Source: Eledone cirrhosa
Taxonomy: Eukaryota
Direction of reading: 5' to 3'
DNA length: 64,000 bases
Assembly (NCBI GenBank): GCA_964016885.1
Contig: OZ024740.1
Span: forward strand, 117,490,001 to 117,554,000
Each line of letters starts with the position of its first letter. Within the stretch, counting starts at the first letter, position 1. Position numbers and translations under genes: made by a program. Below, piece after piece: positions 18,720 through 39,290 of this stretch. The notes under the pieces were generated by a model. The model was not told the DNA's origin, ran no database searches, and saw nothing but the letters and a program-made list of their open reading frames with translations.

Positions 18720-19216
18720 GGGACCAGTGGACAACTGTTCAAAGGAAGAACAGAAAGCACCGAGACACTGGGAGCAAAAAACCCCAAGTAATGTGCAAGT
18801 TTTTCAAGAACGGGACATGCTGGCATGGAGAGACAGGGATGGGATGCAGATTCGCCCACCCTAGGTCTCAAACGAACTATGTCCATCATACTCGCGCAAC
18901 ATGCCCCAGCCAAAGCCGAAATAAGCCGCTCCTGAATTATGCTGATGTGGTGCGTGCCGCACCAACAAGGAGAAGGCACGCACATGCCGACGAGATACAG
19001 ATGGCAGCAGCAGATCAGAAAATTTTTTTAGTGATGGCAGAGAAGATTGTGAGACAGCTGACCTGGCTGCATCGTCTCCAGAGCCAGGGTCATCCACACC
19101 AGCACTCGAGACCACCACAGTTAAGGGACCCAGAGTGGCCGCCGCTATCACCAGACCAGGTGTCATACCGACAGCCATTACTGGCACACCAAAAGTCACA
19201 CCAGTGCTGCTGCTGA
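18720..19216 (+). pseudogene. LINE family 1 ORF1 C-terminal part with CCCH zinc finger
   Basis: [23 protein letters not shown]; the ORF ends HQCCC-stop. Confidence 0.75.
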
Positions 19217-22167
19217 ATGTCAGGGGCCTGGTGAAACTCAGTAACATGAGTAACATTTCCTACCTGGGAGACTTAGCCATAAGCAATCAAGCACTATGCA
19301 TGGCACTAACCGAAACGCACCTGACAAGCAGTATAGCAGATGCAGAAATACATATACCGAAATATACTGTATTTCGTTCGGTCAGGAAGGAGAGAACTCA
19401 TGGTGGGGTTGCTCTGTATATCCGTGAAGATGTCACACCAATTGTACTGTTGACACATTCAAACTCAGTCTGTGACACACTGATAATACATATGAAGCAA
19501 CTACAGACAGTAATATGTGTCACATATCGGCCGCCCGATGCCCCCAGTCATGAGGGTAAATTTGAGGATAGCCTAAGTAGGATAGAAGAGGTCCTTGACA
19601 AACTGGACCAGGGTCTCAACATCCTACTGCTGGGAGACTTCAACCTACCAAAGGTCAAATGGCCTGAGGGCCATCTCCTCCCTGGAATGACGTCAATAGA
19701 ACAGAGACAGACGGAATCCCTGCTGGCCCTCACACACAGGCTGTTCATGGAGCAAGCAATACTCCTCCCAACAAGAGACGAAAATGTCCTGGACCTCTGT
19801 TTTACAAACAACGAAGTGCTCATCCACAATGTAAAGGTGACACCAACAATTCTCTCGGATCATAACTTAGTAGAGCTAATGATATGTGGTCCAAGAGAAC
19901 CAACAGAGACAAAACCACCAAGAAGCTCCGGGACGCTATCCAGCCTTAACTTCTACAAGCTAACTGGAAAAAGATTAAGAGTGAAATCCGGAAGCAAACA
20001 TGGAGTGAAAACACCGCCACACAAGACACTAACACACACTTTCAACACTTCATGACAACGATACACACTATATGCAAAAAGTTTGTCCCGGAGAAAGAGG
20101 CAAACAGACACAAAAATCTTATTCCCAGAGATAGGAAAATCATTATGAGACGTAGAACTAAACTCTCAAACCAGTTGAATAGTCAACAAAACAAAAACAA
20201 GAAGGAATCCTATTTGAAACGTGCACTACTTGACACCGAGATTGCACTCAAATTTAACATGAGAATGAGAGGGCAAAGAAAGAGAACAGGGCCATAGAAA
20301 ACATTAAAACAAACCCTAAGGCCTTCTTTAAATTTGCAAAAGAAACTGCCTCAGTACACTGCAAGATTGGGCCACTCTTCCACACGGACGGTTCATTAAC
20401 CGAAAACCCCCAAGAGATATGTGAAATACTGAACGAACAGTACAAAAGTGTGTTCACATGTCCACTGAGGCACATGCAAATAACGAAGCCAGAGGAGTTC
20501 TTTGATGCCACAACACTACATCAAGAAATGGCAACCATCAACCACATAGACATAACGGAGGAGGATGTGGTGTACGCCATTGATGAAATTAGAACAGACT
20601 CGGCTGCTGGACCTGATGGATTCCCAGCAGTTCTCTTAAAAATATGTAAGCGGGCCTTAGCAACTCCACTGAAGATGCTCTTCAGAAGCTCCTTGGCTAG
20701 CGGTGTACTACCCGGGGAGCTGAAAGAAGGTACAATATGCCCTATCCATAAAGGAGGTAGTAGAACGGAGGCCAAGAACTATAGGCCAGTCTCCCTGACG
20801 TCGCATATCAGTAAGGTCATGGAGCGAGTCGTCAGAAAGAAACTAATCACTTTCCTCGAAGAAAATGACCGCCTGACTAGCACGCAACATGGCTTCCGCC
20901 CAGGAAGAAGCTGCCTTACACAGCTGCTACATCACTACGACTGGGTACTGAGACAACTACTAGACAGCTCACATGTAGACGTGATAAATCGTGACTTTGC
21001 GAAGGCCTTTGACAAGGTCGACAACGGAATGATATGTCACAAACTGCACGGACTCGGCATAACTGGAAAAGTAGGTGAGTGGCTGCAATACTTCCTAAAG
21101 GACAGAAGCCAGGCAGTCACCGCAAATGGGGCCCTCTCAAAGGCAACACCAATAACAAGTGGGGTGCCCCAGGGGACAGTCCTGGGACCACTACTGTTTT
21201 TGGTGGCTCTCTCGGACATGCCCTCTGTGGTGCATGCAACAACTTCCCTCACTAGCTATGCTGATGACACTAAGGTAGCACAGGCAATCAAAAACCCGGC
21301 TGACGCTGCCCTTTTACAGCAGGATCTGGATGCCATATACAGATGGGCGGAAGAAAACAACATGCAGTTTAATGCTGGCAAATTCCAAGCCCTACAATAC
21401 AAACCTGCAAACACAAATATAGTGGAACACAGCTACACAGGACCAGGAGAGACCGATATCCCCGTGTCAAAATCGATACGAGACCTGGGCATAGACATGA
21501 GCGATGATGCATCTTTTTCTTCACACATCATGAAAGGGGCGACAACGTGCAGATGACTCGCTGGCTGGATCTTGAGGACTTTCCGGACAAGAGATCGAGA
21601 CACCATGTTGACACTGTGGAGGACTTTTGTCCTAAGCCGCCTGGACTACTGCTCCCAGTTGTGGTCACCCTATAGTGTCAAACTAACCACGGAGCTTGAG
21701 GCAATCCAGCGAAGCTACACCAAGAGGATTGCCAAGATGAGGTAGACAAGCTACTGGGAGAGGCTGAAGGAACTGAACCTCTACTCCTTGGAGCGAAGAC
21801 GGGAGAGATACGCAGTGATCTACATGTGGAAAATCCTGGAGGGACTAGCACCAAACTTTGGCATTGGGAGCTGGACCAACCGTCGAACAGGACGTCACTG
21901 TGTGGTGCCAAAGGTCCCGTCTTCCACATCTAGAATAAGGAGCATGTATTGCAATAGCCTGGGATTCAAGGGCCTCAACTCTTCAACAGGCTGCCGAGGC
22001 ATCTGAGAGAGTTGCATGACGTGGAGGTGGATGTCTTTAAGAAACATCTCGACACCCTGTTATCCAGGTTCCCGGATGAGCCCAAAGCAAGACACGAGGG
22101 AAACCTAAGGGCAGCAGCAACAAACTCCCTCTTACAACAGTGGCCAACGTATACAGGCTGGAGATAA
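19024..22167 (+). pseudogene. LINE family 1 ORF2 (APE-RT) with frameshifts and stops
   Basis: Split over ORFs 19135-20055, 20052-20297, 20450-21556 and 21788-22006, with internal stops near 21554 and 21743. Confidence 0.9.
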
Positions 22168-22248
22168 AATGTGTAGCAACAAGGGCGGTGCCCCAGCATG
22201 GCATCAGATGGATGGCTGAAACAGGTAAAAGAGTAAAAGAGTAATATA

Positions 22249-34150: not shown

Positions 34151-34373
34151 AATTAAAGATATACCTATGTTCTAAGCGCTCTTTGTTGTTAATTGTATAC
34201 ATATATATATACATATATATATACACATATATATATGTATATATATATATATATATACATATATATAGCAGTTGAGCAGTTGAAGTATAAGGACGTGTTT
34301 TTACTTCTCTCCCCGAGTAAGCAGCAAGTCACACAGCCACAAAACAAAACCACAAGACAAAACCAAACAAACA

Positions 34374-34577
34374 AAAATTGACCGGTTAATACATTTTCAT
34401 ACATCTATATTATTATATATTTGAAAATTGACCGGTTAATACATTTTTCATACATCTATATTATTATATATTTGAAACCACGTGTTTTCGAACTTGTGAG
34501 TACATTTTCCTTTAACTACAAATTATTATTATATACTTTCGTCTTTTCATTAACTTAATTAATTTCAAATAACCAGA

Positions 34578-34625
<48 letters not shown>

Positions 34626-34933
34626 TCATATTTATATATATACGCTTCTCACTCACACACAAGAAAAACAAAAAACAAAAATAAATCAAAAATAAATTTA
34701 AAAAAAAATATATATATATTGAAATACTTAACTAAAACACACACACACGAACTTGTGAGTACATTTTCCTTTAACTACAAATTATTATTATATACTTTCG
34801 TCTTTTCATTAACTTAATTAATTTCAAATAACCAGAATATACATATATATATATATATATACTCATATTTATATATATACGCTTCTCACTCACACACAAG
34901 AAAAACAAAAAACAAAAATAAATCAAAAATAAA

Positions 34934-34967
<34 letters not shown>

Positions 34968-34996
34968 TGAAATACTTAACTAAAACACACACACAC
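34374..34996 (+). repeat. Tandem duplications in the LINE 5' UTR (~50 bp x2 and ~255 bp x2)
   Basis: AAAATTGACCGGTTAATAC... at about 34374 and 34424; CGAACTTGTGAGTAC... at about 34489 and 34748. Confidence 0.88.
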
Positions 34997-35007
34997 TCAA
35001 AACTAGA

Positions 35008-36168
35008 ATGGCTAACCAGCAAAAATCCAAACAGAACTGGTCTGATAATGAAATCGACATTCTAATAAACACATGGCATTGCCTTTCCCAAACAGAAAAT
35101 ATAGATGCTTCATCTCTGAACGACATTGCTAAACGTACAGTTCAATTTTTGAAAACTCGATCTGAACAACAGATTCAAAATAAATTAAAGCAAATCGAAA
35201 TTGCTTTTAAATTAATCAATAAACATTTGGATAAACTACGGTGTGTTTTCTCTTCGAATGCTGTCCAGCAGCAGCAACAACAACAACAGCAGCTACAACA
35301 GCAACAACAGCAACAGCAACAACAACAACAACAGCAACAACAACAGCAACAACAACAACAACAACGACAACAACAGTGTGAACCACTCCTTGATTCATCA
35401 ACAATGGCCGATCTACTAAATGAAACTATTGACCCCCCAGTGGCCTCTGTCTCACAGCATGAAACGCCACATCCTTTCTCTGGCCCAGCAGTCCAATCAT
35501 CACCACTGCCAACATCTCTGCCTACTACTACTACTACTACTACAACATTTTTGTCTACTGCTATGTCAAGGAATTTACCTTCTAATACCAGAACAAGAAC
35601 TCTCCCTCCCACAGTCCACAAAGGTCGTCAAATCCTACCCAAACCATCATCTACACCTCTCACAACACCCACACCCACATACCCACCCACTCGAAACCCC
35701 ATCATTTGCCGCTACTCTCTACGCTATAGAATATGTACGGATAGTGGCTGCAAATTCACCCATTTACCTAGGACAAAACGATCTATCCCCACAAACAGCC
35801 ACCACCATAATACATACTCTAATTTAACACCAACACAACCACCAATAACTCAAACAAGGAATCCACAAATCTGCCGTTTTTCCCTGCGAGACAGATTGTG
35901 TTTAGACCGGGATTGTCCCTTTACCCATCTCCCGGGGACCCGTCGGATAAATGAAAATAAAATTAAAAATAAAAGCAAAAACAAAAACCATAACCTACAT
36001 AAAAATAACCACTACCACAGTCACCAACAGTCTTCTAAACAGGAAACTTCTTCCTCTTTTTTAGCCATAATGAATCTGGCAAAAGAACTGGAAAAAAACA
36101 TTCGAGCTATCACCCAGCACCACCCTCCACTATCACCCCACTGCACAAACTCCCATTGCTGCCATTAA
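35008..36168 (+). CDS. LINE ORF1: Myb/SANT-like N-terminus, polyQ, Thr/Pro-rich linker, two CCCH zinc fingers
   Basis: WSDNEIDILINTW...RSEQQIQNKLK; CRYSLRYRICTDSGCKFTH; CRFSLRDRLCLDRDCPFTH. Confidence 0.85.
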   Translation: MANQQKSKQNWSDNEIDILINTWHCLSQTENIDASSLNDIAKRTVQFLKTRSEQQIQNKLKQIEIAFKLINKHLDKLRCVFSSNAVQQQQQQQQQLQQQQQQQQQQQQQQQQQQQQQQQRQQQCEPLLDSSTMADLLNETIDPPVASVSQHETPHPFSGPAVQSSPLPTSLPTTTTTTTTFLSTAMSRNLPSNTRTRTLPPTVHKGRQILPKPSSTPLTTPTPTYPPTRNPIICRYSLRYRICTDSGCKFTHLPRTKRSIPTNSHHHNTYSNLTPTQPPITQTRNPQICRFSLRDRLCLDRDCPFTHLPGTRRINENKIKNKSKNKNHNLHKNNHYHSHQQSSKQETSSSFLAIMNLAKELEKNIRAITQHHPPLSPHCTNSHCCH

Positions 36169-39100
36169 CAAACAAACAAATTAACAACACACCAAAACAA
36201 TTAAAACCATCCACTCTCGCCTCTACATTTTTGCTTAACGCCCAAGGCATCAGCCCTTCCACCAATACTCAAAAATGGAAGATCAAATTCCTGGAGGACT
36301 GGATTGATGTCCATCCAAACCACATCCCTTTCTTCGTCCTCACTGAAACCCATCTCAGTAACCTCCACTTGGAAGCCGAGGTGAAAGTGAAAAATTTCAA
36401 AGCCATCCGTGCTGATCGCGCTGGCAGAAGAAAGGGCGGAACTGCCATTTATGTCCATAATTCTTTCTCAACAGAGGCTATGAACATATTCACTAATGGA
36501 TACTGTGAGGCAGTCACTGTATTCAGTCAAACCAACAACCTATTAGTAGTTGGGCTCTATAGGCCACCCCAAACGCCTGTACCATGCTTCAAGGAATGCC
36601 TCAACAGCATAAAGTGTTTCATCCAAGAGTGTCACCCTGACAACATCTTAATGATGGGGGACTTCAACCTCCCCGGAGTTGACTGGTCCACAAACACCCT
36701 GCCACCAGGTTCTTCTGCCTCAACCTCTGACAGGGAAGCTGTGGAATCGCTTCTTGACTTCATGGATGATTTCTTCCTATCCCAACTAGTGCTCGAACCA
36801 ACGAGGTGCCACAAAAACGTCCTAGACTTAATTTTCAGCAATCACACTGACAATATCCACAATATTGCAGTGGAGAAAACTCTACTCTCTGATCATGACA
36901 TGGTTCTCTGTGATCTGAGTTTCCACCGTCCAATATACAAACCCAATGTCATTTCTCCTGTCCATCCGTTTGACGCTATGGATTTCCACAATGCAAACTG
37001 GGAAGCGATCAGTCATGATCTTGCACATGTCGACTGGTCCTTCACGCACACTCATACACCCACTAACATCAAAAAGTCCTGGCAGACATTTGTGGACACT
37101 GTTACAAACATATGTGCTAAACACACCCCATTAAGAACTATAAACAAATCTAAGAGCAGAATCCCTAGAAATAGAAAAACACTCATCAGAAAAATTAAGA
37201 GAACGAACAAAAAAATCAACAAGCTGAAATACTGTCAGCAGCAACACATCAACTTGACTGCCATTTCATCACTAGAGATTAAAAAACATAACCTCCAAAA
37301 CAACATAATGTCCCTCATCAACAATCAGAGAAGAGCTGAAGAGGCCTGGGCCATTGAGAAGATCAAACTCAATCCCAAAGTGTTCTTTTCATTTGCAAAA
37401 AAACACAAAATCACTGGCTCTACTGTTGGCCCTCTAATTGATGAAAATGGCACTCTTCAAGACAATGCTAAAACCATGGGTGAGATACTGCAGAAACAAT
37501 ACTGCTCTGTTTTCAGCAATCCTGATATGGCCGATCTGGGCTGTATCGGCGATGTTACTCCCCATTACACCTTATCGGACATAACGTTTGGCGCCCCTGA
37601 TGTCTTGGCGGCAATAAAGGAAATCAAGCATAATTCAGCAGTAGGTCCCGATAGGTTCCCTGCTTGTGTCTTGAAGGCGTGTCAACACCAACTTGCTTCT
37701 CCTCTTGCCAATCTGTGGCGGAACTCACTGGATGCTGGATATGTGCCAGAAAACCTTCTATCCCAGTCTGTTGTCCCAGTTTTCAAAAAGGGAAACAAAT
37801 CCCTTGCCGTGAATTACCGTCCAATCTCACTCACCTCTCATATCATTAAGGTATTTGAGCGAGTGGTGAGATCGCGAATGACCCACTTCCTTGAGAGTAA
37901 CAATATGCTGAACTCCAACCAGCATGGATTCCGTAATGGAAGGGATTGCCTGACGCAACTACTGCATCACTTTGATGACATTTTGAGAGCCTTGGGAGAG
38001 GGTTCCAACACTGATGTTATCTACCTTGATTTCAGCAAGGCCTTTGACAGGGTTGATCATAACATTCTACTGAGAAAGCTGTCCAATATTGGTGTCACTG
38101 GAAAGCTGCTGCAGTGGATCAAGAGCTTCCTGTCAAACAGAACCCAACATGTTGTAGTTGAGGGAGTCAAATCAAGCCCAGCCAAAGTCAGTAGTGGAGT
38201 CCCACAAGGCACTGTGTTGGGCCCACTTCTCTTCATCATCTATATTAATGACATCACTGACATCATCAAACACAGCAACATTAAAATTTTCGCTGATGAT
38301 TCCAAGCTCCAAAAGGTCATCAATGGCGTGGATGACCGGATAAGCCTTCAGTCAGACCTACTGGCTGTTACCCAATGGGCAGAAAAGAACAACATGTTAC
38401 TGAACGAAGACAAATTCGAACTGATCCACTTTGGAAAAGAGGATGCTCTGAAACTCCCGTACTCCCTTCCCTCCGGGGAAACTCTCGTGGCATCTAACAA
38501 CATCAGAGACTTGGGAGTAACCGTGGACAGCAACATAAGCTGGACCACGCATATAAGCAGCAAAGTTGACATGGCCCGCAGAATGTGTTCCTGGATCCTC
38601 AGAACCTTCCAGTCGAGAGATTCCCGCACCATTATCCTTCTCTTCTCTACTTTCGCCCGACCACACCTTGAATACTGTTGTCCACTGTGGTCTCCCCACA
38701 CGAAACAAAGTATCATGAAACTTGAAGCTCCTCAAAGGGCAATCACGAAAAAGATAGATGGCATGTCAGACCTTGACTACTGGGGTCGATTGGAAAACCT
38801 GAAACTTTACTCACTCCAACGTCGCCGTGAGCGTTATATTATCTGCATGATGTGGAAAATGTTCCATCATCACTGCCCAAATGATGTTGGCATCGCCTTC
38901 AAGATACACCCAAGGCTTGGGCCCCGTGCTATCCGTCCCATTCAAAAATCTAAATCGCAACTCATAACAACAATACGGCACAATTATTTCACCTCAATCG
39001 GCCCTGCTCTCTTCAACATCACACCAGGACACGTCAAAACAGAAACTGACCACACAAAATTCAAGAAGTCTTTGGACAAATTCCTCCAAGTAATCCCGGA

Positions 39101-39176
39101 CAAACCACCCACACCCGGATATGTCTCCGCAAACAGTAATTCTCTTCTCGAATGGGCCATGGTGCCCAAATCCTGA
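36057..39176 (+). CDS. LINE ORF2: APE endonuclease plus reverse transcriptase; start placed at the predicted frameshift site
   Basis: [58 protein letters not shown]. The frame is open from 36039. Confidence 0.93.
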
Positions 39177-39290
39177 ATTGAAAGACTTCGCCAGGTGGTG
39201 CTATTAAGTTAGACATGGCCTGGGCCAATACTGGCCAAAACATTTCAAAGTTATTCAAAGTTATATATACATATATATATATATACATAC

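Follow-up and report, generated by a model that had tools for sequence, protein, structure and literature searches.

The reverse transcriptase of a young CR1-like LINE in Eledone cirrhosa is probably produced by a programmed −1 ribosomal frameshift on the heptamer U UUU UUA, which would join ORF1 and ORF2 in a predicted fusion protein. We favor this reading because dozens of distant relatives of the element keep the heptamer or swap in another one. The element lies in the stretch of DNA analyzed here (the window, 64,000 nucleotides), and the first-pass annotation of this stretch had already proposed the fusion; conservation among distant relatives, the open linker between the two frames and the heptamer switches now lend it support at the level of sequence. 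The mechanism itself is known, and it is placed here in an element class where it is not established. Several parts of the signature of a frameshift signal were found: an in-phase heptamer of the form X XXY YYZ, a −1 frame open from that site, and synonymous conservation or replacement of the slip site.

In the proposed mechanism, ribosomes would translate ORF1 as far as U UUU UUA, where a minority would slip back by one base with the Phe and Leu tRNAs on the heptamer. Most ribosomes would finish ORF1p with its short conserved C-terminal tail, which is predicted to be helical, and those that slipped would pass through a poorly conserved linker into the endonuclease and the reverse transcriptase. 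The resulting fusion would measure 1389 aa, composed of 352 ORF1 residues, including the CCCH fingers, and 1037 ORF2 residues. Because no protease domain was detected in the element with Pfam, this product may stay whole, as an uncleaved polyprotein.

Layout of the element and its frame junction

The element, referred to as family A, is full-length and occupies positions 34268..39263 of the forward strand, inserted in a (TA)n-rich tract. Its 5' limit is approximate (3 of 10 copies align back as far as the 5' TA tract), and its copies have a common 3' end. The 5' UTR (34268..35007, forward) contains a tandem duplication of about 255 bp (34489-34747 / 34748-34996), which itself has TA and A runs and recalls promoter monomers. 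ORF1 (35008..36168, forward, 386 aa) comprises, in order, a weak Myb/SANT-like N-terminus (PF13837, E=0.0023, below the Pfam cut-off), a poly-Q stretch, two CCCH-type fingers assigned by reading the sequence, a Phe-Leu motif and a short C-terminal tail. ORF2 (36039..39176, forward) spans 1045 aa from stop to stop and carries, according to Pfam, an AP endonuclease and a reverse transcriptase. Local hairpins are predicted in the 3' UTR (39177..39263, forward), which has a 10-nt tandem repeat at its terminus and is nearly unchanged between family A and its older sister subfamily A'.

Elements of the CR1 group are characterized by frequent 5' truncation and by a short 3' UTR with hairpins and a terminal short tandem repeat. 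An upstream ORF1, an ORF2 with AP endonuclease and reverse transcriptase, 5' truncations, and 3' UTR hairpins with a terminal repeat were all found here, and we take these families to be CR1-like. In a reverse transcriptase tree that has flagged long branches and includes no named clade references, families A, B and D and their homologs group with families C, F and E, separately from elements that are RTE-like or bear RNase H (96/91).

ORF2 is in the −1 frame relative to ORF1 and open from 36039, as the first-pass annotation had stated, and the two frames of family A overlap for 42 codons that contain no AUG. The heptamer T TTT TTA is located at 36057..36063 of the forward strand, where the ORF1 codons TCT TTT TTA place it in the phase required for a −1 slip; this assignment, too, was borne out. 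The ORF2-frame linker from the slip site to the endonuclease Asn (36064..36236, forward) is dual-coding to 36168. The first ATG of ORF2, correctly reported before as lying near 36480 and past the NAQG motif, is inside the endonuclease, 243 nt behind the Asn of NAQG. It is also 312 nt past the ORF1 stop, and no ORF2 AUG was found at or just after that stop, where reinitiation would place one. A start at ATG 36480 would omit the NAQG Asn, which counts for frameshifting over an AUG start; substitution of the apparently equivalent residue, N17A, cuts Zorro3 retrotransposition below 5% (PMC1965478).

A second canonical heptamer in phase, A AAA AAC (36093..36099, forward), had escaped the first-pass annotation and is a possible secondary slip site. 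It is family-specific, since subfamily A' reads G AAA AAC at this position. When the codons of the overlap were shuffled, some canonical heptamer appeared in 15% of trials and T TTT TTA in 0.5%, a modest signal for the window alone, and for this reason the case rests on distant families. At least 40 copies of family A are 100% identical over 35900-36500 (40/40 scored matches across the junction). Conservation within the family was rejected as evidence because it is circular: the 52 identical loci, of which 7 repeat a place and one is the window copy, were picked for 100% identity in a very young family, and their identity therefore says nothing on selection.

Conservation of the slippery site in related families

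The in-phase T TTT TTA is common to families A, A', B and D of the same genome, although the endonucleases of A, B and D are only 29-38% identical. In subfamily A', which is about 70% identical to A, the heptamer is retained in 6 of 8 matches. Family B is represented in the window by a decayed, 5'-truncated LINE (18720..22246, forward) with the same −1 overlap and its heptamer at 19024-19030; it is 32% identical to A in the endonuclease and 42% in the reverse transcriptase region, and T TTT TTA is intact at 22 of its 27 loci. The family D endonuclease is 29% identical to that of A and 38% to that of B. The ORF1 of family D, with a PHD-like region and triple CCCH fingers, has its nearest named proteins in Octopus vulgaris (91-95%), and the T TTT TTA of this family lies two codons past the stop at which ORF2 opens. 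The ORF1 N-termini appear modular, being Myb/SANT-like in families A and B and PHD-like in family D, and the CCCH fingers, the Phe-Leu site and the tail are shared.

Families C and F belong to another CR1-like lineage and differ from the former in their ORF1, which ends in G GGA AAC plus a stop at 32 of 33 loci; the overlaps between ORF1 and ORF2 are only 16, 8 and 5 codons, without ATG. About 36 nt past this heptamer a long stem is predicted (L121-L128, L325, L326; z about −5 in C and −0.7 in F), in which, judged by eye, one change between C and F appears to affect both sides, and it is too distant for a canonical stimulator. As a separate observation, A-run indels before the heptamer in two family F loci (L229 and L230) fuse ORF1 and ORF2 into one frame of 1381 aa, which resembles the product predicted for these elements. 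In the old family E, 2 of the 4 copies examined have C CCA AAA, which is no more than a weak candidate.

A protein search with the family D ORF1 returned 2290 representatives at E values up to 0.001, and the best 150 of these were examined. A tail of at least 40 aa past the last finger is present in 137 of the 150, with Phe-Leu in that tail in 129 of the 137. Among these 129 proteins, a G-starting codon follows Phe-Leu in 116, and the residue before it is never E, Q, K, M or W; the latter pattern is not relied on, because a helix cap predicts much the same. Matches in the ESM Atlas are unnamed CCCH clusters only, without taxa.

For the DNA-level analysis, contigs were scanned with a degenerate pattern built from the zinc fingers only, the slip site being excluded, which yielded 72 metagenome loci and 2 loci in prokaryote genomes, the latter being chance matches; the same pattern gave nothing in viral contigs. 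Locus searches with the endonuclease and with an ORF1 alignment found no related loci. A fixed filter dropped 12 non-member loci, two of which (L280 and L306) do have the heptamer, and the 62 loci kept were reduced to 47 clusters: 9 with a short, broken or cut tail and 38 with an intact ORF1 tail. These metagenome clusters have common ancestry and are not fully independent of one another.

T TTT TTA stands in phase in 32 of the 38 intact-tail clusters; at other x-Phe-Leu sites of these contigs, which served as control, it occurs in 4 of 97. Of the six intact clusters that lack it, four (L242, L289, L290 and L305) carry an in-phase G GAT TTT that lies one codon further upstream, and the remaining two (L247 and L251) have atypical tails and no endonuclease match. 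One G GAT TTT cluster, L290, branches next to family A as its sister, with U6A-bearing neighbors around them (support 84); as L242, L289 and L305 are too short for the tree, the four may reflect one or several independent switches. Conservation of the heptamer among family copies had been named in the first-pass annotation as a check, and the DNA evidence extends far beyond such copies, with a switch to another heptamer in addition.

The reading frames of these clusters follow the same arrangement. An endonuclease was detected in 36 clusters, and 35 of them have it in the −1 frame; in the one that departs from this, L269, there is an indel upstream and the heptamer is still in ORF2 phase. From heptamer to endonuclease, the −1 frame is open over 55-223 codons in all 29 clusters having both; with families A, B and D added, it is open in 32/32, compared with 4.2 expected when ORF1 codons are synonymously resampled, and the +1 frame is open in 0/32. 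On the upstream side, 19 of 29 clusters have a −1-frame stop no more than 4 codons from the heptamer. Endonuclease identity among 26 of these families ranges from 23 to 64%, with a median of 33%.

Alternative routes to ORF2 and the search for a stimulator

Termination followed by reinitiation at a non-AUG codon near the ORF1 stop, a route proposed for L1, could also produce ORF2, and we consider this unlikely; it keeps some probability because the ORF1 stop is near the start of the endonuclease (in most clusters, at most 74 nt from the Asn) and because an ATG in frame precedes the Asn, past the heptamer, in 12 of 29 relatives, though not in the other 17. In-frame CTG, TTG or GTG codons lie near the ORF1 stop in families A, B, C and F (in the family A linker, CTG 36141, TTG 36156, CTG 36159 and TTG 36231), and the L1 ORF2 start tolerates any sense codon (PMC1965478). 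Reinitiation, however, leaves unexplained why the upstream part of the −1 frame has no stop over 55-223 codons and why its opening coincides with the heptamer, and it gives no account of the codon choice T TTT TTA or of the switch to G GAT TTT. TTG 36156, moreover, is deleted in the subfamily copy L111, and the family D ORF2 has no ATG, CTG, GTG, TTG or ACG in frame before the Asn, which counts against the near-cognate start that the first-pass annotation had put forward as a refutation of frameshifting. Splicing is a serious look-alike, because of the G after the heptamer and because the Octopus vulgaris gene model P0004 apparently uses the AG so formed, joining ORF1 to ORF2 at the family D site. 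Since G is the next base after the heptamer in 29 of 32 clusters, as it is in families A, B and D, most sites also read UUUUUUAG, like a 3' splice (or trans-splice) acceptor that would join part of ORF1 in frame to ORF2; the G-starting codon in 116 of the 129 Phe-Leu proteins and the pyrimidine run before the AG of family A point the same way. We nevertheless regard splicing as very unlikely, given that the AG is missing at the site in L254, L262, L277 and L291 and in all four clusters with G GAT TTT (the AG-less clusters include several of the closest relatives of family A), and that families C and F have no acceptor. In the clusters, the bases upstream of the site are A/C-rich and form no pyrimidine tract, and a simple scan of the family A ORF1 gave no donor-like motif. 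A spliced ORF2 mRNA should, by inference from cis preference, be the preferred template and leave spliced copies; none was found in a set of 79 A, 38 B and 33 D loci that contains some places twice, and where long open frames proved to be 5' truncations at scattered points, so this earlier-named refutation found no support either. Among the Logan contig rows listed, no joint or loose end fell at 36064/36065; the kind of run is unrecorded and the result is not counted as evidence.

The heptamer might also act on a polymerase rather than on the ribosome: RNA polymerase or reverse transcriptase could slip on the T run and add one base, bringing ORF2 into frame. HIV reverse transcriptase realigns modestly at the same heptamer (PMC5009743), and in one family B copy, L088, the T run has grown to about 40 T. 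Yet the run is normally of 6 T, falls to 4 T in the G GAT TTT variants and is absent from families C and F, and none of 15 family A copies, here not chosen for identity, is one base longer; we see this route as highly improbable. Least credible of all is that Phe-Leu is kept for the structure of the ORF1 protein, the heptamer being a by-product. The downstream ORF1 tail is indeed conserved with helical periodicity, and S/D-F-L-E at the Phe-Leu site resembles a helix-capping box. Protein constraint cannot fix synonymous codons, however, and this largely refutes the by-product reading, as the site is T TTT TTA in 32 of 38 clusters although TTT and TTC occur in the same contigs at 468:440 and TTA makes up 316 of 2047 Leu codons; the translation of ORF2 would also be left unexplained. 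A-to-I editing was dismissed by reasoning as a route to ORF2, because editing cannot shift a frame.

For the −1 frameshift itself, the first-pass annotation had seen no stimulatory structure by eye, and folding agrees: no stable fold was found in the 107 nt after the slip site (36064-36170; z +0.41 vs shuffles). Across the 32 clusters the downstream folds have a mean z of −0.5, with 4 of 32 below −2, the same as the upstream control. A GC hairpin of 6-7 bp about 7 nt past the site occurs in 7 of 32 clusters, although not in family A. No canonical 3' stimulator, that is, a stem-loop or pseudoknot 5-9 nt downstream, was recognized by folding limited to nested base pairs, and no conserved 3' nucleotide motif was found in the metagenome clusters beyond the ORF1 coding pattern. 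Pairing of the post-site sequence with the distal 3' end gave z values of −0.7 in A, −0.3 in D and about −1 in C and F, with borderline values in family B (−2.2, −2.8) and in one A' copy (−2.4). The best 3'-end matches, of 7-9 bp, change between A and A' without compensation, and a long-range stimulator of the BYDV type was not found.

With no stimulator evident, the slip rate in family A is probably low; the HIV heptamer alone gives about 0.1% frameshifting (PMC3561942). Since LINE ORF2p is made at a low level, as described for L1 (PMC9115989), a low rate of slipping may suffice, or an unseen stimulator may act.

Comparison with known systems and further observations

The closest parallel is HIV-1 gag-pol, whose heptamer is identical to that of family A, in phase, and usually followed by G (PMC3561942, PMC5009743). 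In both cases a structural or RNA-binding ORF is joined to an enzyme ORF in the −1 frame, as predicted in the case of family A. Unlike HIV-1, family A is a non-LTR element with no detected protease domain and no stable stem-loop 7-8 nt downstream, and its ORF1 runs on for 34 codons past the site. The alternative heptamers have viral counterparts as well: G GAU UUU, present in four relatives, is the site of pea enation mosaic virus, of umbravirus/dianthovirus type, and the G GGA AAC of families C and F is of retroviral type (PMC5009743). The plant viruses rely on large 3' structures and on long-range ones (PMC5009743), whereas 3'-end pairing is unsupported in the LINEs analyzed here. A precedent for the missing stimulator is Semliki Forest virus TF, which is made by −1 frameshifting without a functional 3' RNA structure; its 3' sequence, however, is conserved and tested (PMC5009743), in contrast to the LINEs studied here. 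The translation of ORF2 in LINEs is an old problem, and the cases put to the test so far (L1, SART1 and Zorro3) point to reinitiation.

The Dictyostelium elements TRE5-A and TRE3-A belong to the L1 group, a lineage that differs from that of family A. Both are AP-endonuclease LINEs said to require a −1 frameshift for ORF2 (PMC5911963), as family A would, with the difference that the slip site of the family A group can be pinpointed from its conservation in dozens of families. Given this statement, −1 frameshifting is not unprecedented among LINEs. The first-pass annotation had held that characterized LINEs use reinitiation or coupling, which agrees with what is proposed for L1 and with what is shown for SART1, where reinitiation uses an AUG (PMC10275272), and does not extend to the Dictyostelium elements (PMC5911963). 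Human L1, SART1 and Zorro3 share with family A a bicistronic RNA and a low level of ORF2, but they make a separate ORF2p by reinitiation or coupling (PMC10275272, PMC1965478, PMC5009743), whereas the family A frames overlap for 42 codons without an AUG. A 2016 review of frameshifting covers LTR elements, HeT-A and TART and considers L1 ORF2 to be made probably by novel initiation (PMC5009743), +1 shifts or readthrough have been suggested for Paramecium LINEs (PMC5405496), and the accessible text of PMC4700185 and PMC10294476 gave nothing further on LINE frameshift precedent. In the literature covered, which lies outside subscription papers and Repbase (whose entries may mention the overlap), we found no slip site described for CR1-like LINEs.

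A defined seven-base site in a large LINE group makes the question of ORF2 translation testable by one synonymous change. If the proposed mechanism is true, the working enzyme of these LINEs has ORF1 zinc fingers, annotated ORF2 proteins are mis-started, and LINEs and retroviruses use the same device to set the ratio of structural protein to enzyme. These families would also offer dozens of natural candidate −1 sites without an obvious RNA stimulator. A broader proposal, for which we see the chances as evenly balanced, is that −1 frameshifting on a bare slippery site is the usual, and possibly the ancestral, route to ORF2 in CR1-group LINEs, by way of U UUU UUA, G GAU UUU or G GGA AAC depending on the lineage, and that its product is an uncleaved fusion similar to Gag-Pol.

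Some further observations concern the insertions and the sequencing coverage of these families. Truncated copies of families A and B are almost always found in (TA)n microsatellites, which suggests a target preference; the 5' junctions of family D, unlike those of A and B, show no (TA)n association. In sequencing run X1, whose kind is unrecorded, coverage of the element is 5'-biased, unlike that in large runs of the same organism code. Five of 16 truncated family A loci begin at 36086-36087, 23 nt behind the slip site, a possible reverse transcriptase stop or RNA cleavage hot spot; among 8 further truncated copies none begins there and one begins at 36081.
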